Virus record (IMG/VR): IMGVR_UViG_3300044619_001118
Span: 10,284 to 74,283 of that record
Source: a virus
Reading direction: 5' to 3' (one strand)
DNA: 64,000 nucleotides
The notes under the pieces are model-generated. The model searched no databases and had not been told where the DNA came from. It saw only the letters and a list, made by a program, of their open reading frames with translations. This document shows positions 2 to 20,693 of this stretch, one piece after another; the first letter of the stretch is position 1; every line of letters begins with the position of its first letter. A program made the translations under genes and the position numbers.

Positions 2-3000
2 TTAGAATTTGCAGACGGACGTGGAGTACCAGTTGATATAGTTGGTGAGGTTCCTGCAAATGTTCAAGGTAATGATAAGTATTTTTCATGGACAAAGGAT
101 GCACCTGGTAACTTTATAGAACCAGATTTTAAAGACCTTTCTAAAAAAATGAGAGATGTAGTCGATAACTATATAATTCATAAGAAAAAGGCACTGGATG
201 ACTCAGATGAAATTCGTGAAATCTTTACTTGGGAGAATGCTGCAAAGATTGCAAATAAAATTCTACAAGAATTTATGAATGAAGATAGTGGATTTGATGA
301 TTCTGTTGCTATTGTTCTTGCTCATGCAAATACTCCGCGTAGAAGACAATTACTAAAAGATTGCTTATCATCTATAAAAATGAAAACTATACTTTCAACA
401 AATTACACTGTTGATGAAGAAACTCAAAAAATGGCTGATTGGGTTGTTTACTCGAAAGAAAATCCAATTCTGTTAAAACATGAATTTCAAAAATATGGTG
501 TTGCTTATTTCAGATGGTGGAACGATGAAAATGGAAATAGAGTAACAGCCCCTTTCGAGTATGAACATGGTTATGCTGCATATGAACTGACAAAAAAAGG
601 TATTCAATATGCAAAACTACTTGGTAAAAAAAGAGTTCATATCATAAACTATGATTATATAATATCATCATCAACGTTGAATCAAAACGAAAAATTATTA
701 GACGAAAATGATATAGTTCTTTATAAGCATGGGGATTGGGACTTTGAACAAACTGCGTATTGTAGTGCTTTCTTTTCTGCTAAGATTGATATTGCTTCAT
801 CGTATTTCACAAAATATAAATCCAAAGAAGATTATTATCGTTCAATGAGTGGTTTCAATATTTTGGAAATTAATATGGCTAATCATTTTAAAGATTCCCC
901 CTATCGTATTTTTGAATCATCTATAAATGACCTTAAAATTGAAAACAAAGTAAATCAAGAACAGGCGGATAACATTACCACCCCATATGTGGAATATGAC
1001 ACGGAATTAAAACAAGATAAAAGTATAAAGGAGACAAAAATGGCACACAGAGAGCAACAAGAATATTGTAGTAAAATAAAAGATATATTCCCAGAATATT
1101 TTAAGGGAAAACGTGTTTTAGATATTGGCTCATTGGATATTAATGGGAACAATAAATACCTTTTTGATGGTTGTGATTATTTTGGATTGGATGTTGGTGA
1201 AGGAGAAAATGTTGATATTGTTTCTGTTGGTCATATATACGATGCACCAAATGAAACGTTCGATACTATTATTTCAACAGAAGTATTTGAACACGATATG
1301 TTTTATGAAGAAACTGTGAAAAACATTATGCGGATGTTGAAACCCGGTGGTTCATTTATTTTTACTTGTGCATCCACCGGCCGACCAGAACATGGGACAC
1401 GTAAGTCGGATGGGAGTTTTGCTGCACCACTACTTATACAAATATCGGAAAAATGGTCAGATTATTACAAGAATATTACAGAAAACGATATTCGTATTAT
1501 AGATGGATTCAATGAGGCATTTCCAGATGGTGTTTTTGAATATAACTCCGTTTCGGGAGATTTATATTTTTTTGGTGTCAAAGGTGGTATCGAATCCTTA
1601 AAAAAACAAATCTCTATAAAAAATGTATCTGATGTAGAGGTTTATTTGACCATAGACAGTGCGGATGATTTATTTCTAAATATTGACTCCAAATCAATCG
1701 TGAAAAAAGACCAAGAAATTATAATCGATATAACTTATGGTGGAGATATTTTATCACATACCGTAAAAACAAATCAACATGAATCAATAAGTCTTGGAAA
1801 ATACAAACGAGGACATACTGTTCGTGTTAGTGAATCTAATATAGAAATTTTTTCAAAATTCTTAGAAAAAACACCAGAATCATTTAGACGACGTAATAGA
1901 TTATTCGGTCTTGGTGTGGATGCAGGTGATGAGAATAAAATCTTTATGAATTTTGTAAACGGCCCATTTATAGAAATAAAAGGAAGTCAAGAATCTACAT
2001 ATATCGTTAAATTTATTGATGACGATAGTGAAAAGATTATTTATCAGACCACTATTAAAAATAATCAATGGGCTATGTGTAATAGAAAATGGTTTGTTAA
2101 TTGGAGAATAAGGATTGAGTATGAAAACGGTAAATTTTATGATTATAAAATCGATTTAAAAAATAGACGAGTATTTATCGTTTTTGAATCATCATCACTC
2201 GGTGACACAATTGCATGGATACCTTACGTTGAAGAGTTCAGAAAGAAACATGGATGTAATGTAATTGTTTCCACGTTCCATAATGAACTATTCCAATTAC
2301 AATATCCTGAAATTGAATTTGTAAAACCAGGGACAACTGTAAATAATTTGTATGGACTTTATCGTCTTGGATGGTTCCATGATGGAAATAATCCAAATTA
2401 TTCTATGAATAAATCTGACTTCACAAAGATACCGCTTCAACAAACAGCAACAGACATTCTTGGTTTAGATTTTGAAGAAATACGTCCTCGTATGAAATCA
2501 ATCGAACCGATGAAATCAGATAAACCATACATTTGTATTGCAAATCATTCGACTGCTCAATCGAAGTATTGGAACAATCCAACAGGTTGGCAAGAGTTAG
2601 TTGATTATGTCAAAGAACTTGGTTATGATGTCTATCTTCTATCCAAAGAAGAAGACGGTTACATGGGTAATAAAAATCCAAAGGGTGTAATAAAAGTTGA
2701 CGGAAAAACATTAGAAGAGATTGGTTCTATTCTTCTTGGTAGTAAAGGATTCATTGGACTTGGAAGTGGATTGTCATGGTTCTCTTGGGCTTTGGAGGTT
2801 CCAACCATTCTCATAAGTGGTTTCTCCGAGACATATCAAGAAATGAAGTCGGTATATCGAATAATAAATGAGTCTGTTTGTCATGGATGTTTTGCTCGTC
2901 ATACATTCGATAAGGGTGATTGGAATTGGTGCCCAGACCATAAAAATACAGATAGACAATTTGAATGTACAAAAGAAATATCGTTTGAAATGATTAAGCC

Positions 3001-3034
3001 AAATGTAAACAAAATATTAGGACTAAATAGATAA
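2..3034 (+). CDS. Multidomain glycosyltransferase, 5'-truncated: GT4-like C-terminus, unknown domain, class I SAM methyltransferase, AAH/TibC-family O-heptosyltransferase
   Basis: Frame is open from base 2, upstream of the ORF-track start at 149 (LEFADGRG...EPDF...FTWENAA, typical GT4 end). VLDIGSLDING is a SAM motif. The C-terminal part has SSSLGDTIAWIPY, STAQSKYWNNP.GW, FIGLGSGLSW, ISGFS and the four-Cys set CHGC...WCP...FEC characteristic of AAH/TibC. Confidence 0.85.
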   Translation, partial: LEFADGRGVPVDIVGEVPANVQGNDKYFSWTKDAPGNFIEPDFKDLSKKMRDVVDNYIIHKKKALDDSDEIREIFTWENAAKIANKILQEFMNEDSGFDDSVAIVLAHANTPRRRQLLKDCLSSIKMKTILSTNYTVDEETQKMADWVVYSKENPILLKHEFQKYGVAYFRWWNDENGNRVTAPFEYEHGYAAYELTKKGIQYAKLLGKKRVHIINYDYIISSSTLNQNEKLLDENDIVLYKHGDWDFEQTAYCSAFFSAKIDIASSYFTKYKSKEDYYRSMSGFNILEINMANHFKDSPYRIFESSINDLKIENKVNQEQADNITTPYVEYDTELKQDKSIKETKMAHREQQEYCSKIKDIFPEYFKGKRVLDIGSLDINGNNKYLFDGCDYFGLDVGEGENVDIVSVGHIYDAPNETFDTIISTEVFEHDMFYEETVKNIMRMLKPGGSFIFTCASTGRPEHGTRKSDGSFAAPLLIQISEKWSDYYKNITENDIRIIDGFNEAFPDGVFEYNSVSGDLYFFGVKGGIESLKKQISIKNVSDVEVYLTIDSADDLFLNIDSKSIVKKDQEIIIDITYGGDILSHTVKTNQHESISLGKYKRGHTVRVSESNIEIFSKFLEKTPESFRRRNRLFGLGVDAGDENKIFMNFVNGPFIEIKGSQESTYIVKFIDDDSEKIIYQTTIKNNQWAMCNRKWFVNWRIRIEYENGKFYDYKIDLKNRRVFIVFESSSLGDTIAWIPYVEEFRKKHGCNVIVSTFHNELFQLQYPEIEFVKPGTTVNNLYGLYRLGWFHDGNNPNYSMNKSDFTKIPLQQTATDILGLDFEEIRPRMKSIEPMKSDKPYICIANHSTAQSKYWNNPTGWQELVDYVKELGYDVYLLSKEEDGYMGNKNPKGVIKVDGKTLEEIGSILLGSKGFIGLGSGLSWFSWALEVPTILISGFSETYQEMKSVYRIINESVCHGCFARHTFDKGDWNWCPDHKNTDRQFECTKEISFEMIKPNVNKILGLNR

Positions 3035-4338: not shown

Positions 4339-7300
4339 ATGCCAATTATATTACCTAGTGGATTTCAGATAACCAACAACGAGCCTGCGGATTCGAGGTA
4401 CTCCGTTGCTAACTCTGCATCTCGTTTAGGATTTTCTGCCGCAAATGTTTATGAGGGATTGACGGTATATCAAAGAGATACAAACAAATATTACATATTA
4501 ATTGATACGGGTAGTTATAATTCTGAATCTGGTTGGCAGGAAGTTGGAAGTGTTATGCAAACTGGTTCGTTTGCAACAACTGGTTCAAATATTTTTATAG
4601 GAACCGAAACTATAAGTGGGTCTTTGAACATATCTGGTTCATTGACGATAAACGGAACATCATACACTGCAGCAACTTCAGGGACATCTGGCACATCGGG
4701 AACTTCAGGAAGTTCAGGAACATCTGGCACTTCTGGTTCTTCAGGAACATCAGGTTCATCTGGTACTTCTGGTTCATCGGGGAGTTCAGGAACTTCAGGT
4801 TCATCTGGTACTTCTGGTTCTTCAGGAACATCAGGAACGTCTGGTTCATCAGGAACGTCTGGTTCATCAGGAACATCAGGTTCATCTGGTACTTCTGGTT
4901 CATCAGGAACGTCGGGCTCATCAGGAACTTCTGGTTCTTCAGGAACATCGGGTTCTTCAGGAACATCGGGTTCTTCAGGAACATCTGGTACATCTGGCTC
5001 CTCAGGAACATCTGGCACATCTGGCTCCTCAGGAACATCTGGTTCATCTGGAACTTCAGGTTCATCAGGAACATCTGGTACTTCTGGTTCTTCAGGAACT
5101 TCCGGTTCATCGGGAACATCTGGTTCAAGTGGTACATCGGGAACTGGATTTAACACAATATCAAATCCGTCCGATAACAGAGTTTTAACATCAGATGGAA
5201 CTACAAATGCAGCTTCGGCAGAATCTAATCTAACATTTGATGGGACAACTTTAACAGTTACTGGCGATGCAGTTGTTACTGGTAAACTGACTGTACAAGA
5301 ATTTTATACAGAATTAGTATCATCTTCAATAATTTTTGAAAGTGGTTCGACTAAGTTTGGTAATTCATTCGATGATACACACCAATTTACAGGTTCACTT
5401 CTTACATCTGGGTCGAATGTATTTATCGGTATTCAAACTGTAACTGGTTCTTTACGCACAAGTGGTTCTAATACTCTTATTGGTAATACCGAACTCACCG
5501 GTTCATTTAATGTAAGTGGTAGTCAAGCTTTTGTTGGCACTCAAACTGTAACTGGTTCACTTCTCACATCTGGCTCCAGTGTTCTTGTTGGTAACACTCA
5601 ACTTACAGGTTCATTTGATTTGACGGGTAGTCAAAATACAACTGGATATATCGGTTTCCTTCCAGTTGGGGCATTACCAATTCGAACAGACCAAACTGCT
5701 TCTTATATCTACACAAGTGGCTCAACGAATGACCTTTACTTTACACAACAACAAGGACCATTTACAAACACTACTCGTCTTCGTTGGCTGGAAGGTAATC
5801 TATATACTGGTCTGTTACACGGTGGTAGAATAACATCCGCATCCGCAACAACATTTAATGTTAGTTCTGGTAGTGGTATAATTGTTAATCTAAACGCTTC
5901 ACTTACAGATGACCCGTACCCAACTATTAAGTTTTTAAGATGGGACACATTCCAAAGTCAATCACTGATAAATCTAACATCAAGTATTCAAACATTCTTA
6001 GGTATAGATTCAAATGCACAAATAATCCAACAAACTGTACCGTGGAACAATGGCGAATATAACACTTCTCTTCAACTTGGGACAGTTCTTCACCAAAATT
6101 TATCAACTATAAATGGAACAATTTCTTACCCAAATGTTGCATACGGATACAAACAAAGAACTTATGACTTCATAAAGGCATTCGGTCCACTAAAACTTTC
6201 TGGATATACAATTGTACCAAGTTCTTCTCTTGGTCTTAATGTTGGTAGTGGAACTGCATTTGCAGATGGTAGAAATTATCAAACAGATCCAAATAATCCA
6301 AGTTATATAGTTGATCCTGGAACTGCGGTATCTAAAATATTTAGATATTACCAATCTGGTTCTGGATTCGTTCAAGATACAAACGGTGGTCTCGGTTACA
6401 CGGTAATTGATCCGGCTAATTATAATCTTAATGGTACACTAACCGCTGTACCGGGTGGTGGCTCGAACAGACAATGGTCTATACAGAGAGTTTTCTGGTA
6501 TCCGAATTCAGCAACAAAAGGTATTGTTGTTTATTATGGAAACGCAACATATGAATCCGCAACAGTTGCTATTGCAAATCTTCCATTTGAAACATTTAAT
6601 GAAGTAGAAAATACAAAACAAAATGCCATTTATTTAGGTGCAATGGCACTTAGAAATAATGCCGATTTTACAGATTCAACTTCCTATGTAATTTTACCTG
6701 GTGGTATATTCCGTTCCGTTGGTGGTCAAGGTGGTGGTGGAAATGTTCCAACAACAAGATTAACAGACTTATCTGACGTTGAAACAATTGGTGTTTTAGA
6801 CGGTGATGTATTAGTTTACGATGGTAATGCTAATATTTGGAGACATAATAAAACATTAACCGGAAATTATGCAGTAACTGGTTCTATTAATATAAGTGGT
6901 TCACTTGTAATAAATGGAACGTCATATATGGCAGCAACCTCTGGAACATCAGGAACATCTGGTATAAATGGCACATCTGGCTCTTCTGGAACGTCGGGAA
7001 GTTCAGGAACTTCTGGTTCATCGGGAACATCAGGTACTTCTGGTTCCTCTGGAACTTCTGGTTCTTCAGGTACTTCTGGTTCAAGTGGCACATCTGGTGA
7101 ATCAGGCACATCAGGAAGTTCAGGGACTTCAGGTTCATCGGGAACCTCTGGTTCTTCTGGAACATCAGGAACCTCTGGTGAATCAGGAACGTCAGGTTCA
7201 TCAGGAACGTCAGGTTCATCAGGAACGTCAGGTTCATCAGGAACATCTGGTTCTTCTGGAACATCTGGAACAGGATTTGATACAATAAACAATCCATCAA

Positions 7301-9330
7301 ACGGTAGAGTTTTACTTTCCGATGGTACAACAAATGCAGCTACTGCGTCTTCAAATATAACATTTATTGGTAATACATTTAATGTTACCGGTGATGCTAT
7401 TATTAGCGGAAAACTAACAGCACAAGAATTTTATACGGAATACGTTTCTTCTTCTATTATTTTTGAAAGTGGGTCTACCAAATTTGGAGATTCTCTCGAT
7501 GATATACATGATATAACGGGAAGTTTAAAAATTACTGGTAGTGTTTCTGTACGAGATTTGTCATTAAACAATTTATCTAAATTTGTTGTTTATGACGATA
7601 TAACTGGTCAATTCTATTACAACAATGCTGGTGCCGCCGGTTCAAGTGGAACATCTGGAACATCTGGGACATCTGGTCAAACTGGTACATCTGGAACTTC
7701 TGGTGTAAATGGAACATCGGGGTCATCTGGTAACTCAGGAACCTCAGGTTCATCAGGAACATCAGGTTCTTCAGGAACATCAGGTTCTTCAGGAACATCA
7801 GGTTCATCTGGTGAATCGGGAACCTCAGGTTCATCAGGAACTTCAGGTTCATCTGGTAATTCAGGAACATCAGGTTCATCAGGAACTTCAGGTTCATCGG
7901 GTAACTCAGGAACCTCAGGTTCATCAGGAACATCTGGTTCATCGGGTAATTCAGGAACATCTGGGTCTTCTGGGACATCTGGTTCATCTGGTAATTCAGG
8001 AACATCAGGTTCGTCTGGAACCTCAGGTTCATCTGGTAATTCTGGAACGTCTGGGTCTTCTGGAACATCAGGAAATTCAGGAACTTCAGGTTCATCGGGT
8101 AATTCAGGAACATCTGGTTCGTCTGGAACTTCTGGTGTAAATGGAACATCAGGTTCATCAGGAACTTCCGGCTCATCGGGTAATTCAGGAACTTCGGGTT
8201 CATCGGGAACTTCTGGCTCATCGGGTAATTCAGGAACATCTGGAAGTTCGGGAACTTCTGGTGTAAATGGAACATCTGGAAGTTCGGGAACTTCTGGTGT
8301 AAATGGAACATCTGGAAGTTCTGGAACTTCTGGTGTAAATGGGACATCGGGTTCATCAGGCACTTCTGGTATATCTGGTGCATCGGGAACTTCAGGTTCA
8401 TCAGGAACATCAGGTTCATCTGGTAATTCAGGAACTTCAGGTTCATCAGGAACATCAGGTTCATCTGGTAATTCAGGAACTTCAGGTTCATCAGGAACAT
8501 CAGGAACATCAGGAAATTCAGGAACTTCTGGTTCATCGGGTAATTCAGGAACTTCAGGTTCATCAGGAACATCGGGTTCTTCTGGTAATTCAGGAACATC
8601 AGGAAGTTCAGGAACTTCTGGTGTAAATGGAACATCAGGTTCTTCTGGTAATTCAGGAACGTCTGGGTCTTCAGGTACATCCGGTGCAGGGTTCAACACG
8701 ATAAACAACGCTGGTACTTTCCGTGTTCTACTATCGGATGGTACAACAAATGCAGCTACTGCCTCATCGAATCTATCTATAAACGGTACTGCTTTATCAC
8801 TCACAGGTTCAGCCACAATTTCAAGTTCCGCCAACTCACAACTTACTCTTATTGGTTCAGGTTCATCTAACCCAATCTTTAAGGTACAAGGTTCTCTTGG
8901 TGAATTGTTTGCGGTAACAGATTCAATGTCAGGTTCCCTTTTCTCCGTCAATGATATTTCAGGTCTTCCAATACTTGAAGTATTCTCGGATAATAGAATC
9001 CTTATGGGTGATATACAAGCCCCATCACTTTATACAACAAAGAGAAACTCACTTTCAACGGGTGTAACAACACTTTATAGTGTACCGACGGGTTCTTACA
9101 ATAGTGCTCACGTTGAGTATAATTGTGTGAGTGCCTCCAACGGAAGAGCTGGTACATTTACTGCATTTTGGATTGGTAGTACACTACAATTCAACGAAGT
9201 TTCAACAGTGGATGTTGGAAACTCAACAACACTAACTCTTTCAGGTAGTATATCGGGTGGAAACTTTAACTTACAGGCTTCTGCTTCAAGTGCATCATGG
9301 GTACTAAAGACAATTATTAGAGGTGTGTAA
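4339..9330 (+). CDS. Long fibre protein with three Gly-every-third (SGT/SGS) repeat tracts
   Basis: 1663 aa with three repeat blocks, each followed by a GF.TI.N....RVL.SDGTTNAA.A.SN module. The SSSIIFESGSTKFG module is duplicated, and there is an LTDLSDV...DGDVLVYD fibre motif. Confidence 0.75.
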   Translation: MPIILPSGFQITNNEPADSRYSVANSASRLGFSAANVYEGLTVYQRDTNKYYILIDTGSYNSESGWQEVGSVMQTGSFATTGSNIFIGTETISGSLNISGSLTINGTSYTAATSGTSGTSGTSGSSGTSGTSGSSGTSGSSGTSGSSGSSGTSGSSGTSGSSGTSGTSGSSGTSGSSGTSGSSGTSGSSGTSGSSGTSGSSGTSGSSGTSGSSGTSGTSGSSGTSGTSGSSGTSGSSGTSGSSGTSGTSGSSGTSGSSGTSGSSGTSGTGFNTISNPSDNRVLTSDGTTNAASAESNLTFDGTTLTVTGDAVVTGKLTVQEFYTELVSSSIIFESGSTKFGNSFDDTHQFTGSLLTSGSNVFIGIQTVTGSLRTSGSNTLIGNTELTGSFNVSGSQAFVGTQTVTGSLLTSGSSVLVGNTQLTGSFDLTGSQNTTGYIGFLPVGALPIRTDQTASYIYTSGSTNDLYFTQQQGPFTNTTRLRWLEGNLYTGLLHGGRITSASATTFNVSSGSGIIVNLNASLTDDPYPTIKFLRWDTFQSQSLINLTSSIQTFLGIDSNAQIIQQTVPWNNGEYNTSLQLGTVLHQNLSTINGTISYPNVAYGYKQRTYDFIKAFGPLKLSGYTIVPSSSLGLNVGSGTAFADGRNYQTDPNNPSYIVDPGTAVSKIFRYYQSGSGFVQDTNGGLGYTVIDPANYNLNGTLTAVPGGGSNRQWSIQRVFWYPNSATKGIVVYYGNATYESATVAIANLPFETFNEVENTKQNAIYLGAMALRNNADFTDSTSYVILPGGIFRSVGGQGGGGNVPTTRLTDLSDVETIGVLDGDVLVYDGNANIWRHNKTLTGNYAVTGSINISGSLVINGTSYMAATSGTSGTSGINGTSGSSGTSGSSGTSGSSGTSGTSGSSGTSGSSGTSGSSGTSGESGTSGSSGTSGSSGTSGSSGTSGTSGESGTSGSSGTSGSSGTSGSSGTSGSSGTSGTGFDTINNPSNGRVLLSDGTTNAATASSNITFIGNTFNVTGDAIISGKLTAQEFYTEYVSSSIIFESGSTKFGDSLDDIHDITGSLKITGSVSVRDLSLNNLSKFVVYDDITGQFYYNNAGAAGSSGTSGTSGTSGQTGTSGTSGVNGTSGSSGNSGTSGSSGTSGSSGTSGSSGTSGSSGESGTSGSSGTSGSSGNSGTSGSSGTSGSSGNSGTSGSSGTSGSSGNSGTSGSSGTSGSSGNSGTSGSSGTSGSSGNSGTSGSSGTSGNSGTSGSSGNSGTSGSSGTSGVNGTSGSSGTSGSSGNSGTSGSSGTSGSSGNSGTSGSSGTSGVNGTSGSSGTSGVNGTSGSSGTSGVNGTSGSSGTSGISGASGTSGSSGTSGSSGNSGTSGSSGTSGSSGNSGTSGSSGTSGTSGNSGTSGSSGNSGTSGSSGTSGSSGNSGTSGSSGTSGVNGTSGSSGNSGTSGSSGTSGAGFNTINNAGTFRVLLSDGTTNAATASSNLSINGTALSLTGSATISSSANSQLTLIGSGSSNPIFKVQGSLGELFAVTDSMSGSLFSVNDISGLPILEVFSDNRILMGDIQAPSLYTTKRNSLSTGVTTLYSVPTGSYNSAHVEYNCVSASNGRAGTFTAFWIGSTLQFNEVSTVDVGNSTTLTLSGSISGGNFNLQASASSASWVLKTIIRGV
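4678..5148 (+). repeat. Coding tandem repeat (SGT/SGS)n, block 1
   Basis: 9-nt period TCN-GGN-(A/T)CN, about 157 codons. Confidence 0.95.
6940..7275 (+). repeat. Coding tandem repeat (SGT/SGS/SGE)n, block 2
   Basis: Same period, about 112 codons. Confidence 0.95.
7639..8691 (+). repeat. Coding tandem repeat (SGT/SGS/SGN/VNG)n, block 3
   Basis: Same period, about 350 codons. Confidence 0.95.
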
Positions 9331-10118: not shown

Positions 10119-10369
10119 AACTAACAGACATATCACAAGAACAATGGTCAACCTACGTCGGTATTCTAACCGAAGAACAAAAAGATTCCATAGTTGGTCA
10201 ACAATTTACTACCGATAGTTTCTTCAATCCTATTCACGATAAGAATGATAATTGGATTATATCGGTAGAAGAAATGGCTTATTGTACAAATTCAACCTTC
10301 TTATGGGTAAAAGACCTTGACCTTATTCCTTACGAACCAAAAGAATATCCATCACCATTCGGAATATAA
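10115..10369 (+). CDS. Small acidic hypothetical protein (possible fibre chaperone)
   Basis: 84 aa, ATGA overlap with the upstream gene. Confidence 0.6.
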   Translation: MKLTDISQEQWSTYVGILTEEQKDSIVGQQFTTDSFFNPIHDKNDNWIISVEEMAYCTNSTFLWVKDLDLIPYEPKEYPSPFGI

Positions 10370-12424: not shown

Positions 12425-12790
12425 ATGTCAAATTGGTCAAGAAGTCTTGCTGGAGTACAAACTCTTTCGGAAGTAAGTGCAAGTGCTGCAATTAGTGGTG
12501 GTACACTTACATTAGATTTGAGTACCGCTGGTATTTTTTACGTCAATTTAAATGCAAATGTAACTACCTTGACAATATCAAATACTCAAACAATCGGTGC
12601 AAGTGCTTTTACATTGATATTTATTGCTGATGGAACACCTCGTTCAGTTACATGGGGTGCAAGTATTTTATGGCCAGGTGGAACTGCACCAACACTTACT
12701 TCAACAAACGGTAAAGATGATATATTTTCATTTGTAACGATAGACGGTGGTACAACTTGGTATGGATTCAACGGAGGTCAGAATTTATAA
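12425..12790 (+). CDS. Tail-fibre C-terminal-like domain protein
   Basis: TLDLS...FTLI....GTPRSVTW...ILWPGGTAPTLT....DIFSF.T.DGGTTWYG, a common phage fibre domain. AAGGAG RBS. Confidence 0.65.
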   Translation: MSNWSRSLAGVQTLSEVSASAAISGGTLTLDLSTAGIFYVNLNANVTTLTISNTQTIGASAFTLIFIADGTPRSVTWGASILWPGGTAPTLTSTNGKDDIFSFVTIDGGTTWYGFNGGQNL

Positions 12791-12793
12791 GTT

Positions 12794-15700
12794 ATGCCTT
12801 TTATTAAAAACATAGTAGTACAGAAAACAAAGACTCTAGCGGCACCAGTTATACAATACTCACTTTGGGGTTGGGGGGATGGCACTGTTGGTCAAACGGA
12901 TAATGATATACTTACTTACGTTCCATATCCAGTAGATAATGGAACAACATGGGTGAGTGGGAGTGGTGGTGCCTCACATACAATGGCTATAAAAACAGAC
13001 GGAACTCTATGGGGTTGGGGTGCTAATGCATTCGGTCAACTTGGTGACCGTACTGTGATAAATAGAAGTTCTCCAGTTCAAATAGGAACTCTTACAAACT
13101 GGTTAAAAATTTCTCGCGCCGGTAATACTACATTGTCTATAAAAACAGACGGAGCACTTTGGGCATGGGGTTCAAATGCGTCGGGTCAATTAGGTGATGG
13201 TACTGTCATAAATAGAAGTTCTCCTGTTCAAATTGGAACTCTTACAAACTGGGCATCTGTCTCTGGTACAGTTTCACATACAATGGCTATAAAAACCGAT
13301 GGAACTCTTTGGGGTTGGGGACTTGGTTCATCTGGACAGATTGGTGACGGTACTATTATTTCAAGGTCTTCACCTGTTCAAATTGGAACTCTAACAAATT
13401 GGGCATCTGTTTCTGCTAATAGTCTTTACTCAATGGCTATAAAAACTGACGGAACTCTTTGGGGTTGGGGACTTGGTACATCTGGACAATTAGGTGATAA
13501 TACTGCTTTATCTAGAAGTTCTCCTGTTCAAATAGGAACTCTTACAAACTGGGCATCTGTCACTGGTGGTTCTGGTCATACAATGGCCATAAAAACAGAC
13601 GGAACACTTTGGGGTTGGGGTGCAAACACAAGCGGACAGATTGGTGACGGTACTACTACAACAAAGTTTTCACCTGTTCAAATTGGAACTCTAACAAACT
13701 GGGCATCTGTTATTGCTAGTGGTAATCCCGGCGGTAATCATACAATATCCATAAAAACCGATGGAACTCTGTGGGTTTGGGGTAATTCTACTTCTGGTCA
13801 ATTAGGTGACGGTACTACTAATGATAGAAGTTCTCCTGTTCAAATAGGAACTCTTACAAACTGGGCATCTGTTTCTGCTGGGTCATCCCATACAATAGCC
13901 ATAAAAACAGACGGAACAATATATACATGGGGAGCTGCATTATCTGGACAACTTGGATATACGATGCAACGTTCCTCACCTGTTCAAATTGGTGATGGTT
14001 ATTCTTGGTCAAACATTGATGCAGGCCGAATCGGCACCAGTGCAGGACTTCACACAATGGGTGTTAAAACCAATGGAACTCTATGGGGTTGGGGTGGAAA
14101 TCCATCTGGTCAACTAGGTGACGGTACTTTGATATTTAGAAGTTCACCTGTTCAAATAGGAACTCTTACAAACTGGTCATCTGTTGAATGTGGTACTGAT
14201 TCTTCATTTGGTTTGAAAACGGATAATACCTTATGGGGTTGGGGATACAACGTAAATTTTGAACTCGGAGACGGCACATCTACATCTAAGAGCTCCCCCG
14301 TTCAGATTGGAAGTTTATCATGGAAAAAAGTTTCAGCTGGTGCTGCGTTTACAGTTGCTATTTCATCTGATGATAAATTGCAATCATGGGGGTCTACTTC
14401 TGCTGGTAAACTTGGATTTGGATTTAATAACAGTCCTGTTCAATTAAATTCCACATATGATTGGTCAAGTGCAGCTGCATCTGCCGGAAGTATTATTGGA
14501 TTAAAAACAAACGGAACTCTGTGGTCATGGGGAAGTAATACACAAGGTGAACTCGGTTTAAATGATACAATAACTAGGTCATCACCCGTCCAAATAGGAA
14601 CAGATGTAAACTGGTATTCAATTGATATGGGATTCGAAATAGGCTCAACATCGGTCGGCGCGATAAAAACAGATGGTACACTTTGGACATGGGGGAACGG
14701 TGGTAGTGGACAGTTAGGTCATTCAAATACGGCAAATCGAAGTTCACCTGTTCAAGTTGGAACTTTAACAAGTTGGTCTAAAATCTCTGTTGGAACCGCA
14801 TGGATGATGGCATCAAGAACAGATGGAACTCTTTGGGTATGGGGTGGTTCTCCTAATTTTGGACAACTTGGTCAAAATAACACAAGTACCTTTAGTTCTC
14901 CTGTTCAAATAGGAACACTAAATACATGGTCACAAATTGCAGCAGGTCGATATAGCGCATTTGCTATAAAAACAGATGGAACATTATGGTCTTGGGGATT
15001 AAATACAAGTGGTGAACTTGGAGACGGAACAGTAATTAATAGAAGTTCTCCTGTTCAAATAGGAACTCTTACAAACTGGTCAAAAATATATGCCGGTGGT
15101 GATTCAACATCTGCTGGTTCAACGATAGCTATAAAAACAGATGGTACTCTTTGGATGTGGGGCCGATATGCATCCGATGGTACAACAGTTTCACGAAGTT
15201 CTCCTGTTCAAATAGGAACACTCACGAATTGGTTATCTGCGTCCTCTGGAGGAAATGTTTCGAACTTTGCAATAAAAACCAACGGAACTTTATGGACTCT
15301 AACTTCCTTTAGTAATGGAGATACTGGAGATGGAACTTATAATGGTAGAAGTTCTCCTGTTCAAATTGGTACTTTAACGTCATGGTCTTTTGCATTAGCG
15401 ACTAGTTCAACTGGTTATGCCATAAAAACTGATGGTTCTTTGTGGGGATGGGGTGGCAATGTATTGGCATACTATCCAAAAGTAATTCATGCTCAAAACA
15501 CTTCAAATATTATAAGACCCTGTATAATAGATGTGGATAATTGGGGTGAAGTTTCTGCTGGAGCTAGTTATTCTATGGCCATAAAAACAGACGGAACACT
15601 TTGGGGTTGGGGTAGAAACGGCAACGGTCAGTTGGGTGATAATACGACCACAACACGGTCTCAACTTGTTCAAATAGGCAATCTCACTGATTGGTCAAAA

Positions 15701-18196
15701 GTTTCTGCTGGTGATTCACACACGATGGCTATCAAAACCGACGGAACTCTATGGTCTTGGGGAACGGGAACTAGTGGTCAGTTGGGATTAGAATCAACAA
15801 CACCATCGTGGACTATTGACAGAGGAACTAACTGGGCAACAATTTCTGGAGGTGCTACATATACATTAGCCGTAAAAACAGATGGAACACTATGGTCTTG
15901 GGGGAATGGTCTTCTAGGCCGATTAGGCACCGGTAATACTACAAGTAGAAGTTCACCTACTCAAATTGGAACCCTCACAAACTGGTCATCTGTTTCTGCT
16001 GGTTTTGGTAATAATTTAGCCCTAAAAACTGATGGAACTATGTGGGGATGGGGACAAAATGCAAATGGAGAAATCGGAGATTTTACTTTAACTTCCAGAA
16101 GTTCTCCTGTTCAAGTTGGACTTAATGCAAGTAATTGGTTATCTGTTTCTATGGGTTCAAATCATGGAGTCGGAATCAAAACCGATTACACAATTTGGTC
16201 ATGGGGCGTTAATAGTTCAGGTCAACTTGGTGATGGCACCACAACTTCAACTAGTTTTCCTGCTCAAATTGGAACTGGCACAGACTGGTCAAAAGTTTCT
16301 TGTGGTCAAAATCACACAATTGCCATAAAAACAGATGGAACTCTTTGGGCATGGGGTGGAAATTCCGTTGGACAATTAGGTGATAATAATAGTCCATTTG
16401 GCAAAAGTTCACCTGTTCAAATTGGGACTCTTACAAATTGGTCATCTGTTTCCGCTGGTTCTAATAATTCACTTGCTATAAAATCGGATGGAACTTTATG
16501 GGCATGGGGCTCGAATACTAATGGACGATTGGGAATAACAACACCAGTTTTACCAATAAAATTGGATAGTGGTGCTAATTGGTCAACTGCTGGTTTATCT
16601 TCACATTCTATGGTTGTAAAAACCGATGGAACTCTATGGGGATGGGGATTAAATTCAAACGGACAATTAGGACTTAATGATACAATAAATAGATCGTCAC
16701 CTGTACAAATCGGCACAGACACTAATTGGTCAACTGTTGCTGCTAATTCTGGATTTACACTTGCTATAAAAACAGATGGAACACTTTGGTCATGGGGACA
16801 AAATTCAAATGGTCAACTTGGTCAGACTATATCAACTGGTATAAATCGTTCTTCACCCGTTCAAGTTGGTACTTTAACAAATTGGTCAAAAATATCAATA
16901 GGACCAAATTTTGCAACTTCTATTAAAACAGACGGTACTTTATGGGTGTGGGGTAGTAATGGAAACGCTCAACTCGGTTTAAATAATTTTACTCAACATT
17001 CTTCTCCTGTGCAAGTCGGCACAGACACTAATTGGTCTTCCATATCTGCCGGCGGTAACGCATTTTGTGTTGCTATTAAAACAGATGGAACACTATGGTC
17101 TTGGGGTAATAATACAAATGCTGAACTTGGACAAAATAATACCATATCTAGAAGTTCTCCTGTTCAAATAGGAACAGATGTAAACTGGTCAAGAATATCA
17201 GCCGGCGCATCTGTTACATTAGCTATAAAAACAGACGGAACTCTATGGGGATGGGGCGCCAATGCAGCATATTCTCAAATAGGTGATGGGACATCTACAA
17301 CTAGAAGTTCCCCTGTTCAAGTTGGTACGCTAACAAATTGGTCTTCCATATCTGTTGGTGGTCAAACATCCACTGCATTAAAAACAGATGGGACTCTATG
17401 GACATGGGGTGGCGGTTCAAATGGTGAATTTGGCGACGGAACTTTTACTTCCCCAAGAAATTCCCCAGTTCAAGTCGGCACTCGCACAGATTGGAAATCT
17501 GTATTTGCTGCTGGTTCAGTGCCAACCAGTATTTACCATGTAATGGCAATCGATACATCGAATAACTTATATGGGTGGGGAATAAATACCACAGGACAAC
17601 TTGGTTTAAATAATGTAGTATCATACAATTCAACTGGATATTCATCGCCAATTCAAGTGGGTACTCTTACAAATTGGGCATCTGTTTCTGCTAACGGTGG
17701 TAGTGGTGGTTCACATACAATTGCTGTAAAAACCGATGGAACTCTATGGGGTTGGGGTGGAAATCCATCTGCTCAATTAGGTGACGGTACTCTTGTAACT
17801 AGAAGTTCTCCTGTTCAAATAGGAACTCTTACAAATTGGTCGAGAATTTCTGCTGGTGGTGGACATTCAATATCAATAAAGACAGATGGTACACTACGTG
17901 CATGGGGTGGAAACACAAATGGCGAATTGGGTAGAGGATTCATAGCCGGCCCAGTTTCCCGTTCTTCACCTGTTCAATTGGGCGAAGACCAATGGACATC
18001 GGTTTATGCCGAAAATTCAAATACAATGGCAATCCGCTCAGATGGAACTCTTTGGGGGTGGGGTCTAAATACAGCCGGTTATATTGGAGATGGAACGGTA
18101 ATTTCTCGTTCATACCCCGTACAAATTGGTACATACTCTAAATGGAAACAAGTTTCTTCTGGTGCTTCTCATACCGTTGCTATTCGTGAAGAATAA
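12794..18196 (+). CDS. RCC1/BLIP-II repeat protein, 35 repeats (five 7-bladed beta-propellers), probable adhesin or receptor-binding protein
   Basis: Repeat AIKTDGTLWxWGxNxxGQLGDxTxxxRSSPVQIGTLTNW, counted 35 times by eye. Confidence 0.9.
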   Translation: MPFIKNIVVQKTKTLAAPVIQYSLWGWGDGTVGQTDNDILTYVPYPVDNGTTWVSGSGGASHTMAIKTDGTLWGWGANAFGQLGDRTVINRSSPVQIGTLTNWLKISRAGNTTLSIKTDGALWAWGSNASGQLGDGTVINRSSPVQIGTLTNWASVSGTVSHTMAIKTDGTLWGWGLGSSGQIGDGTIISRSSPVQIGTLTNWASVSANSLYSMAIKTDGTLWGWGLGTSGQLGDNTALSRSSPVQIGTLTNWASVTGGSGHTMAIKTDGTLWGWGANTSGQIGDGTTTTKFSPVQIGTLTNWASVIASGNPGGNHTISIKTDGTLWVWGNSTSGQLGDGTTNDRSSPVQIGTLTNWASVSAGSSHTIAIKTDGTIYTWGAALSGQLGYTMQRSSPVQIGDGYSWSNIDAGRIGTSAGLHTMGVKTNGTLWGWGGNPSGQLGDGTLIFRSSPVQIGTLTNWSSVECGTDSSFGLKTDNTLWGWGYNVNFELGDGTSTSKSSPVQIGSLSWKKVSAGAAFTVAISSDDKLQSWGSTSAGKLGFGFNNSPVQLNSTYDWSSAAASAGSIIGLKTNGTLWSWGSNTQGELGLNDTITRSSPVQIGTDVNWYSIDMGFEIGSTSVGAIKTDGTLWTWGNGGSGQLGHSNTANRSSPVQVGTLTSWSKISVGTAWMMASRTDGTLWVWGGSPNFGQLGQNNTSTFSSPVQIGTLNTWSQIAAGRYSAFAIKTDGTLWSWGLNTSGELGDGTVINRSSPVQIGTLTNWSKIYAGGDSTSAGSTIAIKTDGTLWMWGRYASDGTTVSRSSPVQIGTLTNWLSASSGGNVSNFAIKTNGTLWTLTSFSNGDTGDGTYNGRSSPVQIGTLTSWSFALATSSTGYAIKTDGSLWGWGGNVLAYYPKVIHAQNTSNIIRPCIIDVDNWGEVSAGASYSMAIKTDGTLWGWGRNGNGQLGDNTTTTRSQLVQIGNLTDWSKVSAGDSHTMAIKTDGTLWSWGTGTSGQLGLESTTPSWTIDRGTNWATISGGATYTLAVKTDGTLWSWGNGLLGRLGTGNTTSRSSPTQIGTLTNWSSVSAGFGNNLALKTDGTMWGWGQNANGEIGDFTLTSRSSPVQVGLNASNWLSVSMGSNHGVGIKTDYTIWSWGVNSSGQLGDGTTTSTSFPAQIGTGTDWSKVSCGQNHTIAIKTDGTLWAWGGNSVGQLGDNNSPFGKSSPVQIGTLTNWSSVSAGSNNSLAIKSDGTLWAWGSNTNGRLGITTPVLPIKLDSGANWSTAGLSSHSMVVKTDGTLWGWGLNSNGQLGLNDTINRSSPVQIGTDTNWSTVAANSGFTLAIKTDGTLWSWGQNSNGQLGQTISTGINRSSPVQVGTLTNWSKISIGPNFATSIKTDGTLWVWGSNGNAQLGLNNFTQHSSPVQVGTDTNWSSISAGGNAFCVAIKTDGTLWSWGNNTNAELGQNNTISRSSPVQIGTDVNWSRISAGASVTLAIKTDGTLWGWGANAAYSQIGDGTSTTRSSPVQVGTLTNWSSISVGGQTSTALKTDGTLWTWGGGSNGEFGDGTFTSPRNSPVQVGTRTDWKSVFAAGSVPTSIYHVMAIDTSNNLYGWGINTTGQLGLNNVVSYNSTGYSSPIQVGTLTNWASVSANGGSGGSHTIAVKTDGTLWGWGGNPSAQLGDGTLVTRSSPVQIGTLTNWSRISAGGGHSISIKTDGTLRAWGGNTNGELGRGFIAGPVSRSSPVQLGEDQWTSVYAENSNTMAIRSDGTLWGWGLNTAGYIGDGTVISRSYPVQIGTYSKWKQVSSGASHTVAIREE

Positions 18197-18289: not shown

Positions 18290-19315
18290 ATGAAAAACCG
18301 AGCAGATAAAATAGTACCGGGTCAAATGCACCCACTTGATATTGCACTCCAAGCCAGCATTAACGGTCATCCTGAAATTAGTGAAGATATTTTACGTTCT
18401 CAACCACAAGATGACCTTCGAGTTCTTTTCAATCTTGGTTGGCACGAAATGAGACATGGTAATCTCAAAAAGGCAATGGAACACTTTAACTACGGTCGGT
18501 ATATCGACGTATTTGGACTACCACCACTTCCAGGAAAAATTTGGAAGGATGAACCACTCGAAGGAAAAACACTTCTTTTCAGATGTGAAGGTGGTTATGG
18601 AGACCAAATTCTTAACTTTCGTTTTGCAAAACATTTTGTAGAAAAAGGTGCAAGAGTTCTTGTCTCTTGTGCACCAGAATTAAAAGAAATATTTTCTCGT
18701 CACGGATATATTTGTATTGACAATGAAGTTGCAATGGGTGCTCATTACGATTATTGGGTTCCAGCTATGTCAGCGGCATTTATCTTGGATATGGAATACG
18801 AAGACCTTGACGGTTCTCCATTTCTAAAACCAAAAGAACCAAGAACACTTTTCGCAAAGAAAGGAACTTTAAAGGTTGGTGTTCGTTGGTCTGGTAGTCC
18901 TGACTTTGAAGATGAACAACATCGTAGATTTGACCCAAATCTTATGATTGACCTTCACGATATTCCAAATACAACATTCTATTCACTTCAACGTGATGAA
19001 AATCTTGTTGATGGTTTGCCATTTGGTGATATGAGAGAACAAATGAAATCATGGGAAGATACTGCAAACATCATGGCAGATTGTGACATTATCATTAGTT
19101 CTTGTACCGCAACTGCACACCTTGCCGCGGCAATGGGTAAACCAACTTGGGTTCTAACTCCTATTATGCCTTACTATACTTGGGCAGTTCCTGGTGATGG
19201 TTCAAGGTGGTATGATTCGGTAAAGTTGTATCGTCAAGTAAAATATGGTGAATGGGATGTTCCATTCCAAAAGATTCGTGAAGACCTAACAAAGTTAGCG
19301 GAAAACCACAAATGA
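18290..19315 (+). CDS. GT9-like glycosyltransferase with short TPR-like N-terminus
   Basis: EGGYGDQI.NFRF, KVGVRWSGSP, FYSLQ, DTANIMADCDIIISSCTATAHLAAAMGKPTWVL, RWYDSVKLYRQ. Confidence 0.8.
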   Translation: MKNRADKIVPGQMHPLDIALQASINGHPEISEDILRSQPQDDLRVLFNLGWHEMRHGNLKKAMEHFNYGRYIDVFGLPPLPGKIWKDEPLEGKTLLFRCEGGYGDQILNFRFAKHFVEKGARVLVSCAPELKEIFSRHGYICIDNEVAMGAHYDYWVPAMSAAFILDMEYEDLDGSPFLKPKEPRTLFAKKGTLKVGVRWSGSPDFEDEQHRRFDPNLMIDLHDIPNTTFYSLQRDENLVDGLPFGDMREQMKSWEDTANIMADCDIIISSCTATAHLAAAMGKPTWVLTPIMPYYTWAVPGDGSRWYDSVKLYRQVKYGEWDVPFQKIREDLTKLAENHK

Positions 19316-20085
19316 AATTAGATGTAATTTTACGAACTCATGATAAACGAGAAATACACATTTCAAAATCACTTCGTTATTGTGGTGTCAATAAAACGAC
19401 GGTAGTAAAAAAATGTGTAAAGTCTCTTATAGAATCGTGTAATAATTCAGAACACGATATAACCTATTGGTGGTATGATGACCACTCTTCTGAAGAAACA
19501 ATACAAGAATTACACGAATTTTTTAGTAAGTCAAAACACCCATACAACTTTATTCCACTGGAAGAAGAAGGTTGGCGGTCAAGTGGTTTAGCTCAATTTG
19601 AACGTGGTAGAGATTCTGATGCTGATTTAGTTTACTTTGTAGAAGATGATTATCTTCATTATCCATCCGCAATCGATGAGATGGTTGATGCTTATACTAC
19701 GTTCAAGAAAAATTTGGGTAAAGAAATTTCAATCCATCCATTTGATGACCCAGATAATTACCTTCCGGTTTGGATTGAACCTTGCCGTATTGTTTACGGA
19801 AAAAATCGTCATTGGAGAACAAATCTACATACAACATTTACATTTCTCTGTAATCCAGAATTGGTTCGTGCAAATTGGCACATCTTCTATACCATGGCAA
19901 CTGAGTATGGTACTGTTTGGGGTGAGATGAATTACGTCAACGAATCAACGATGGTCAATAAACTGTGGAGAGATGACGTAACTTTGTTTACACCGATTCC
20001 GTCAGTAGCTTTACACATGGCATATGAAACACAGAAAGACCCTTATTTGGATTGGAAAGAACTTTGGGATAGGTTTGAAATATGA
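19312..20085 (+). CDS. GT-A fold (GT2-like) glycosyltransferase
   Basis: YDDHSS and LVYFVEDDYLH (DxD-type) motifs. ATGA overlap with the upstream gene. Confidence 0.65.
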   Translation: MKLDVILRTHDKREIHISKSLRYCGVNKTTVVKKCVKSLIESCNNSEHDITYWWYDDHSSEETIQELHEFFSKSKHPYNFIPLEEEGWRSSGLAQFERGRDSDADLVYFVEDDYLHYPSAIDEMVDAYTTFKKNLGKEISIHPFDDPDNYLPVWIEPCRIVYGKNRHWRTNLHTTFTFLCNPELVRANWHIFYTMATEYGTVWGEMNYVNESTMVNKLWRDDVTLFTPIPSVALHMAYETQKDPYLDWKELWDRFEI

Positions 20086-20693
20086 ATAAAAGAGACGATT
20101 TAAAATATGACTATGATTGGTTTAGTAAGAATTTAGCAGAAATTCTTTTTTCGGTAAAACCAACAATAAAAGAAATTAAAAATCCAAAAATACTTGAAAT
20201 CGGTGGATTTGAAGGACGGTCTACTAGATGGTTTATCGAAAACTTTCTAAACGATGGCGGAGAATTGCATTGTATTGATACATGGGAAGGTAGTTTGGAA
20301 CACGATGAAATGGACATGGATTTCTCCAGTATCTACGATGTGTTTTCTCACAACCTTCGAGAATATATTGATGACGGAACTTGTATAGTTCATCGTGGTA
20401 TGTCAAAAGATATTTTACCAAAACTTTTATCAGAAGGACATCAATTTGATTTTATCTATGTTGACGGAAGTCACCTTGCATCGGATGTTATTATTGATGG
20501 AGTTCTTTCTTATCTATTATTAAAAACGGGTGGTATTCTTGCTTTTGACGATTATATGTATGGGTACACGGATAAAAGACCGTATGATATACCACACCAT
20601 GCAATAAACTTCTTTGATTCTGCATTTAGAGACAGAGGAAGAATTGAACTTCTCGGTTTAAATTTAATGGCAACTTATAAAAAGTTAGAATAA
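20082..20693 (+). CDS. Class I SAM methyltransferase (Methyltransf_24-like)
   Basis: ILEIGGFEGRST, CIDTWEGS, FDFIYVDGSH, LLKTGGILAFDDY. Confidence 0.85.
   Translation: MNKRDDLKYDYDWFSKNLAEILFSVKPTIKEIKNPKILEIGGFEGRSTRWFIENFLNDGGELHCIDTWEGSLEHDEMDMDFSSIYDVFSHNLREYIDDGTCIVHRGMSKDILPKLLSEGHQFDFIYVDGSHLASDVIIDGVLSYLLLKTGGILAFDDYMYGYTDKRPYDIPHHAINFFDSAFRDRGRIELLGLNLMATYKKLE

Follow-up and report, generated by a model that had tools for sequence, protein, structure and literature searches.

How can 35 RCC1 repeats in a single chain be arranged into seven-bladed rings? The question is raised by P0001, a protein of 1,800 amino acids (aa) encoded in a viral DNA stretch of 64,000 nucleotides (nt) (positions 10,284 to 74,283 of the IMG/VR record IMGVR_UViG_3300044619_001118), which is referred to as the window. 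A first-pass annotation had read P0001 as a nested assembly of five propellers, in which a central ring carries three others in its loops and one of these hosts a fifth. The follow-up presented here suggests that nesting in some layout is quite probable, and that the exact layout of that annotation (layout A) is the best supported of those considered, if only just on the likely side.

Irregular repeats and the counting of blades

P0001 belongs to the RCC1 and RCC1-like domain family (PF00415, PF13540 and PF25390), the signature of which is a repeat of approximately 50 aa. Pfam matches cover the full length of the protein, with an E-value of 1.6e-246 over 28 stretches for RCC1 (PF00415) and a score of 1377 bits, against a cut-off of 150, for RLD (PF25390). 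Anchoring of the repeats on the C strand (‘..LWxWG’) results in exactly 35 of them, the number given in the first-pass annotation, each of 46–59 aa and starting at residues 25, 73, 123 and so forth until 1754. The N terminus consists of a leader of 21 aa followed by a C strand, and the C terminus lies directly after a B strand. It follows from these two ends that each blade takes its A and B strands from one repeat and its C and D strands from the next. Judging from the sequence, the first C strand would join the C-terminal A and B strands in completing the final blade of the central ring.

When the 35 repeats are aligned, divergent or short C–D regions appear at repeats 1, 8, 11, 18, 20, 25, 32 and 34, in agreement with the junctions listed previously and with the segments of 7, 3, 7, 2, 5, 7, 2 and 2 blades that they delimit. 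When the C–D halves are scored with a profile, the seven lowest values are those of repeats 18, 11, 1, 20, 25, 34 and 8, repeat 18 being the lowest of all; repeat 32 comes ninth or tenth, tied with repeat 16 and behind repeat 17. The four opening motifs described in the first-pass annotation are found at nt 12929 (VDNGTTW), 14444 (LNSTYDW), 15815 (IDRGTNW) and 16559 (LDSGANW). Likewise, the odd blade ends that it had placed within the 3+2+2 segments (GDGYSW, GSLSW, DVDNW, GEDQW and GTYSKW) belong to repeats 8, 10, 18, 34 and 35, respectively.

The eight irregular repeats can be read as balanced brackets, (1,8), (11,18) and (20,(25,32),34), in which each ring totals 7 blades. If 8 junctions are drawn at random from 35 repeats, every ring sums to 7 with a frequency of approximately 3e-4, a value that rises to approximately 0.013 when the test is free to pick its 8 junctions from the 10 repeats with the lowest scores. 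No 7-repeat periodicity is seen in the irregular repeats, and repeats 15, 22 and 29 are entirely canonical, without a linker, so that a linear string of rings would have no visible boundaries there.

In layout A, blades 8–10, 18–19 and 34–35 would form the central ring, with the N-terminal C strand closing it. Ring I (blades 1–7), ring II (blades 11–17) and ring III (blades 20–24 and 32–33) would each be inserted in the C–D loop of one central-ring blade, and ring III would host ring IV (blades 25–31) in a C–D loop of its own. At each insertion the chain would exit the host blade after the host C strand, first contributing the closing D strand of the guest ring and then building the guest blades. 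It would then return after the last C strand of the guest, supplying the D strand of the host blade.

Two classes of junction and the evidence from relatives

The labels ‘open’ and ‘close’ were derived from counting alone, and the two classes of repeat that they define also separate in their strands (Fisher p = 2e-4 and 2e-5). Opening repeats have a C strand starting with W (W.WG) in 70% of cases and a canonical D strand in 13%, with C–D loops of 11–13 aa as compared to the canonical 15. Closing repeats show a C strand with a W start in 13% of cases (it is usually Y) and a canonical D strand in 78%, with loops of up to 20 aa. In ordinary repeats, these proportions are 97% for the W start and 90% for the D strand.

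In P0001, one half, and one only, is canonical in each of the 8 junction repeats, and the two halves match within the repeat in 0/8. If C and D strands are paired across the brackets instead, normal with normal and odd with odd, 8/8 blades are consistent in layout A; a fully consistent match is reached in 1.4% of all possible pairings. Moreover, blade 10 (A10, B10 and C11 with D18) and blade 31 (A31, B31 and C32 with D25) are divergent in all four strands, which points in the same direction as the pairing in layout A. The complementarity of the opening and closing halves is in keeping with a crossing of the chain between rings in the C–D loop. A host blade would then combine the C strand of an opening repeat with the D strand of a closing one, and the blade that closes the guest would combine the C strand of the closing repeat with the D strand of the opening one.

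With regard to relatives, repeat counts were obtained for 120 RCC1 proteins from databases, and layouts were read by hand in P0006, P0021, P0066, P0110 and P0082. In 59 of the 120 proteins the number of repeats can be divided by 7, when around 17 such cases would be expected, with peaks at 28, 35, 42, 49 and 56, and related loci encode proteins of 56 and 91 repeats. By eye, the counting rule fits P0006 (49 repeats and 12 junctions, with a chance of approximately 1e-5), P0021 (28 repeats, 3|7|4|5|7|2), P0110 (28 repeats), P0066 (35 repeats, four levels deep) and P0082 (21 repeats). In an unsupervised approach, the 2(k-1) lowest C–D scores led to a valid layout in 7 of the 16 relatives with 28 repeats, with nulls of 0 to 0.007; among the layouts found by this automated score is that of P0105, which had not been read by eye beforehand. 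With two spare candidates, the score also recovers the layouts of P0001 and P0066, with nulls of 0.007 to 0.013.

The closest relative, P0006, shares approximately 50% identity with P0001, as well as the same termini and the same junction motifs of the central ring. For 5 of the 7 central-ring repeats of P0001, the positional ortholog is the top match among the 49 repeats of P0006. The central ring of P0006 again reads as 3+2+2 and takes its guests in the same three loops, and three further rings are nested in its ring I and none in its ring III. It had been anticipated that homologs would differ by multiples of seven repeats at the same junctions, and P0006 behaves in this manner, keeping the 3+2+2 ring and its motifs and differing from P0001 by whole rings. 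Blade-by-blade orthology between the two proteins works for junction and central-ring repeats only, the canonical repeats being too similar to each other. Repeats 20 and 34 of P0001 are orthologous to repeats 41 and 48 of P0006, which are exactly 7 apart.

P0001 would have grown by gaining units of seven repeats in frame, through duplication or insertion. In a broader sense, it seems on balance likely that P0001 represents a family, widespread in phages and bacteria, of proteins whose RCC1 rings are recursively nested in C–D loops, up to three or four levels deep and with up to 13 rings (91 repeats). Members of such a family would gain seven repeats at a time in frame and form branched, multivalent binding bodies of phage tails.

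Several observations on repeats and termini can be added. A MIKDII-like leader of around 21–25 aa ahead of the first C strand is common to P0001 (12794–12856), P0006, P0021, P0066 and P0110, and it could be a virion attachment peptide or a plug of the central ring. The repeats with the highest similarity within P0001 are repeats 3–7 of ring I (13244–13933), with 74–78% identity at the protein level and up to 81% at the DNA level, a likeness that suggests recent amplification or homogenisation within this ring. Similarity as a function of repeat offset revealed no periodicity of 7 or 14 repeats in P0001, and thus no trace of a recent whole-ring duplication. Among the related loci, a region of a viral or metagenome contig shared by L024 and L013 encodes a protein of 5,017 aa with 91 RCC1 repeats (13 x 7; L024:449-15499), and L003:7896-22442 contains five consecutive RCC1 genes, with products of 1826, 606, 471, 1285 and 723 aa. 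A 14-repeat protein in L001 presented no clean opening or closing motifs and was left out of the layouts.

Fragment models and alternative arrangements

AlphaFold2 was applied to two fragments of P0001, with 15-row alignments made of non-overlapping segments from the window and related loci. The model of aa 912–1800 has a mean predicted local distance difference test score (pLDDT) of 78.7 and contains a well-formed contiguous ring of blades 18–24 in its residues 1–348. This predicted ring superposes on UVR8 (4dnv_A) with a Z-score of 53.5 and a root-mean-square deviation (rmsd) of 1.6 Å over 346 aligned residues, which is consistent with the seven-bladed fold. In the same model, repeats 20 and 25 have D strands that are unformed and of low confidence. 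The model of aa 807–1800 (pLDDT 70.9) shows a distorted ring of blades 16–22 (Z-score 21, rmsd 3.5 Å), disorder in blades 23–24 and a propeller arc that begins at blade 25 (tectonin matches, model residues 453–722). AlphaFold respects the junction at repeat 25 and not those at repeats 18 and 20. As a point of method, when AlphaFold2 is given a truncated repeat array and a thin alignment, it closes the first seven blades from the N terminus of the construct, an artefact that represents a trap for the domain parsing of such proteins.

Certain results weigh against the nested reading in layout A. Both fragment models show contiguous rings only, the position of which follows the start of the construct. 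The predicted ring of blades 18–24 contradicts the pairing of blades 18–19 with 34–35 and of blades 20–24 with 32–33, and the pairing within ring III is absent from the model of aa 912–1800 even though this construct held all of the blades of that ring. The per-blade comparison that the first-pass annotation had proposed as a check did not discriminate between arrangements, since the clustering by similarity gives a z of 3.8 for layout A and 3.1 for a linear string, and shows no preference for layout A over a second nested arrangement, layout B (z also 3.8). As for the relatives, the automated junction caller fails on proteins with at least 42 repeats, the junction sets of several of them were read by eye, and the 28-repeat proteins with valid layouts are akin to each other rather than independent cases. 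Given this kinship, the independent evidence amounts to five or six distinct layouts and is not measured by the number of proteins. The layout of the first-pass annotation thus stands insofar as it explains all eight irregular repeats and pairs the C and D strands in every junction blade, and it finds no counterpart in the fragment models. Since blades 18–24 were closed in one construct and blades 16–22 in the other, these models depend on where the construct starts, and the closure of the first seven blades makes them undecisive both between nested and linear arrangements and between the two nested layouts. They would accordingly weigh neither for nor against nesting, and they keep layout B alive.

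In layout B, ring I would form the N-terminal part, contiguous rings of blades 11–17, 18–24 and 25–31 would occupy, one after another, one loop of a central ring formed by blades 8–10 and 32–35, and repeats 20 and 34 would be merely divergent. The counts work in this arrangement too (3+4 = 7, plus three runs of 7), irregular repeats occur every 7 positions from repeat 11 to repeat 32 (11, 18, 25 and 32), and in its D strand and connector repeat 18 resembles opening-type repeats of P0006. It is also in line with the good ring that the model of aa 912–1800 makes of blades 18–24, although this ring was not reproduced with the construct that starts two blades earlier. What layout B leaves unexplained are repeats 20 and 34, which are clear opening and closing types with orthologs in P0006, and the C–D pairing, which is consistent in 4/8 blades rather than in 8/8. 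Furthermore, its application to P0006 would need a ring boundary at repeat 46, which is fully canonical, and this argues for layout A in both proteins. Layout B is considered unlikely.

A comparably low probability is assigned to the absence of nesting, whereby five contiguous rings would follow each other in sequence and the irregular repeats would be blades adapted to ring–ring contact or to ligand binding. The half-repeat complementarity (0/8 within repeats, 8/8 across brackets) has no explanation in such a string, and the boundaries that it requires fall on the canonical, linker-free repeats mentioned above. The spacing of the irregular repeats by 7 could in part reflect a ring position that recurs in duplicated rings, but irregular repeats at an equal position modulo 7 belong to opposite classes. 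Every solved RCC1 structure is a single contiguous ring, and contiguous rings are seen in both fragment models, both of which speak for the linear string. Notwithstanding, neither the 3|7|4|5|7|2 pattern of the P0021 group nor the consecutive openings at repeats 5 and 6 of P0006 can be divided into contiguous sevens at irregular repeats. The segments of P0001 as proposed in layout A are listed in Table 1.

Table 1. Positions in the window of the P0001 gene, of its neighbours in the tail-fibre cluster and of the segments proposed for P0001; ring assignments follow layout A unless otherwise stated (r, repeat).
Feature	Position (nt)	Strand	Basis or remarks
Collagen-like tail fibre gene	4339–9330	+	PHROG tail-fibre families, Pfam Collagen
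Small gene directly upstream of P0001, tail-fibre C-terminal (tip) domain	12425–12790	+	phrog_9017, phrog_7760
P0001 gene, 1,800 aa, 35 RCC1 repeats	12794–18196	+	Open reading frame and translation, Pfam RCC1/RLD, repeat count
Leader of 21 aa (kept among relatives) and first C strand (aa 22–28)	12794–12877	+	Similar N termini in P0006, P0021, P0066, P0110
Opening loop r1, 13 aa (canonical 15)	12878–12916	+	
Ring I, D strand of r1 through C strand of r8, blades 1–7, contiguous	12917–13933	+	Bracket (1,8)
Closing loop r8, C–D region short by four residues, C strand with Y start	13934–13972	+	
Central ring part 1, blades 8–10	13973–14392	+	Orthologs P0006 r29–31; r8 and r9 top matches
Opening loop r11, 12 aa	14393–14428	+	
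Ring II, blades 11–17, contiguous	14429–15454	+	Bracket (11,18); identical in layouts A and B
Closing loop r18, 20 aa, without GQLG motif	15455–15514	+	Lowest C–D score in P0001
Central ring part 2, blades 18–19	15515–15763	+	r19 is top match of P0006 r40; in layout B, start of ring 18–24
Opening loop r20, 13 aa	15764–15802	+	Model of aa 912–1800: pLDDT < 50, no D strand
Ring III part 1, blades 20–24	15803–16510	+	Bracket (20,34); r20 resembles P0006 opening repeats r41, r32
Opening loop r25, 11 aa	16511–16543	+	Low pLDDT in both fragment models
Ring IV, blades 25–31, contiguous, inside ring III	16544–17581	+	Bracket (25,32)
Closing loop r32, 20 aa, 8-aa insertion, C strand with Y start	17582–17641	+	
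Ring III part 2, blades 32–33	17642–17908	+	5+2 = 7; in layout B, central ring
Closing loop r34, 18 aa, C strand with R start	17909–17962	+	Ortholog P0006 r48
Central ring part 3, blade 34 and A–B strands of blade 35	17963–18193	+	r34 and r35 top matches of P0006 r48 and r49

Gene neighbourhood and comparison with known propellers

The source record of 74 kb is about 44% complete, and the sheath, tape measure, portal, capsid and terminase genes carried by the window indicate a large myovirus. The P0001 gene sits in a cluster of tail-fibre genes, and a similar neighbourhood is found in the related loci L014 and L015. In these three loci, tail-fibre-tip genes (phrog_9017/7760) lie immediately upstream of the multi-RCC1 gene (12425–12790 in the window, L015:5576-6823 and L014:860-2510). 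RCC1 proteins are moreover present in many isolated phages. Going by gene neighbourhood only, P0001 is most likely a tail-fibre-associated and virion-associated body for multivalent binding, possibly of receptors. In PHROGs at E <= 1e-10, P0001 matches RCC1 families only and no tail-fibre family.

It is regarded as very improbable that P0001 acts within the host cell during infection, a role that the name ‘regulator of chromosome condensation’ would imply. PHROGs does assign the family to ‘DNA, RNA and nucleotide metabolism’, but the name has been carried over from eukaryotic RCC1, and the gene is located between tail-fibre, tail-fibre-tip and glycosyltransferase genes in three independent loci. 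In bacteria no nucleotide-exchange partner is known, and bacteria and phages are devoid of Ran. The PHROGs category of phage RCC1 proteins conflicts with their neighbourhood in the tail module and looks like the result of a transferred name.

Further genes accompany this module. In L014, three tandem tail-fibre-tip paralogs and a gene for a tail-fibre assembly chaperone precede the multi-RCC1 gene. In the window, genes for glycosyltransferases (GT9-like and GT2) and methyltransferases flank the fibre and RCC1 genes (149–3034 and 18290–20693), and a similar set of glycosyl- and methyltransferase genes is found upstream of the RCC1 gene in L015. The flanking transferases may modify virion proteins.

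Propellers are among the best-studied repeat folds and, as far as could be found, they have been described as single or sequentially strung rings. If the nested reading is correct, P0001 would illustrate a new mode of growth for repeat proteins, the gain of a whole ring inside a ring, and would offer a natural case of recursive domain insertion that still folds. With the simple rule that brackets sum to 7, the domain organisation of thousands of large RCC1 proteins now annotated only as ‘RCC1 repeat’ could be read from sequence. For the virus, it would imply a compact, branched and multivalent receptor-binding body in the tail-fibre module, and the misleading ‘regulator of chromosome condensation’ name would be corrected.

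P0001 shares the repeat signature and the seven-bladed fold with RCC1 (1A12), UVR8 (4DNV), the RLD of HERC2 (3KCI) and RPGR (4JHN), and its sequence matches to solved RCC1 structures reach an E-value of 7e-45. These known domains consist of one contiguous ring of approximately 370–480 aa that is closed on itself by its termini; P0001 differs from them in having five rings per chain, with a spacing of irregular repeats that implies segmented rings. A Ran-exchange function is not expected for P0001. Among the RCC1 proteins of phages, those of the Synechococcus phages S-SRM01 and BUCT-ZZ01, of the Clostridioides phage phiCD211 and of an uncultured phage (UniProt A0A6J5KPF3, 1,077 aa) share 22–43% identity with P0001, and some of them have two or three rings. 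Their annotation does not go beyond ‘RCC1’ or ‘hypothetical’, and no description of their ring connectivity was found in the sources that could be searched. The RCC1 chains in the PDB are single-ring, with no multi-ring chain among them, and a search of a library of papers returned no description of nested or inserted RCC1 propellers; the word ‘nested’ in one candidate paper has a different, unrelated meaning.

Outside the RCC1 family, DDB1, CPSF160 and SF3B3 each hold several seven-bladed propellers in one chain as a compact cluster. Their propellers are WD40-like and sequential, with minor strand exchange only and no known recursive insertion, whereas P0001 has RCC1 rings for which recursive insertion is proposed. 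Propellers that take up a whole domain in a blade loop are also known. The Vibrio cholerae adhesins Bap1 and RbmC reportedly have a propeller with an inserted domain of another fold (a beta-prism), and in integrins the alpha I-domain is a vWA domain inserted in a propeller. In both of these systems the guest has a foreign fold, while the guest in P0001 would be a propeller of the same family, with insertions going up to three or four levels deep in its relatives. Hosts of foreign domains and clusters of several propellers are thus already known, and the recursive insertion of propellers into others of their own family would add a new variant to these architectures.

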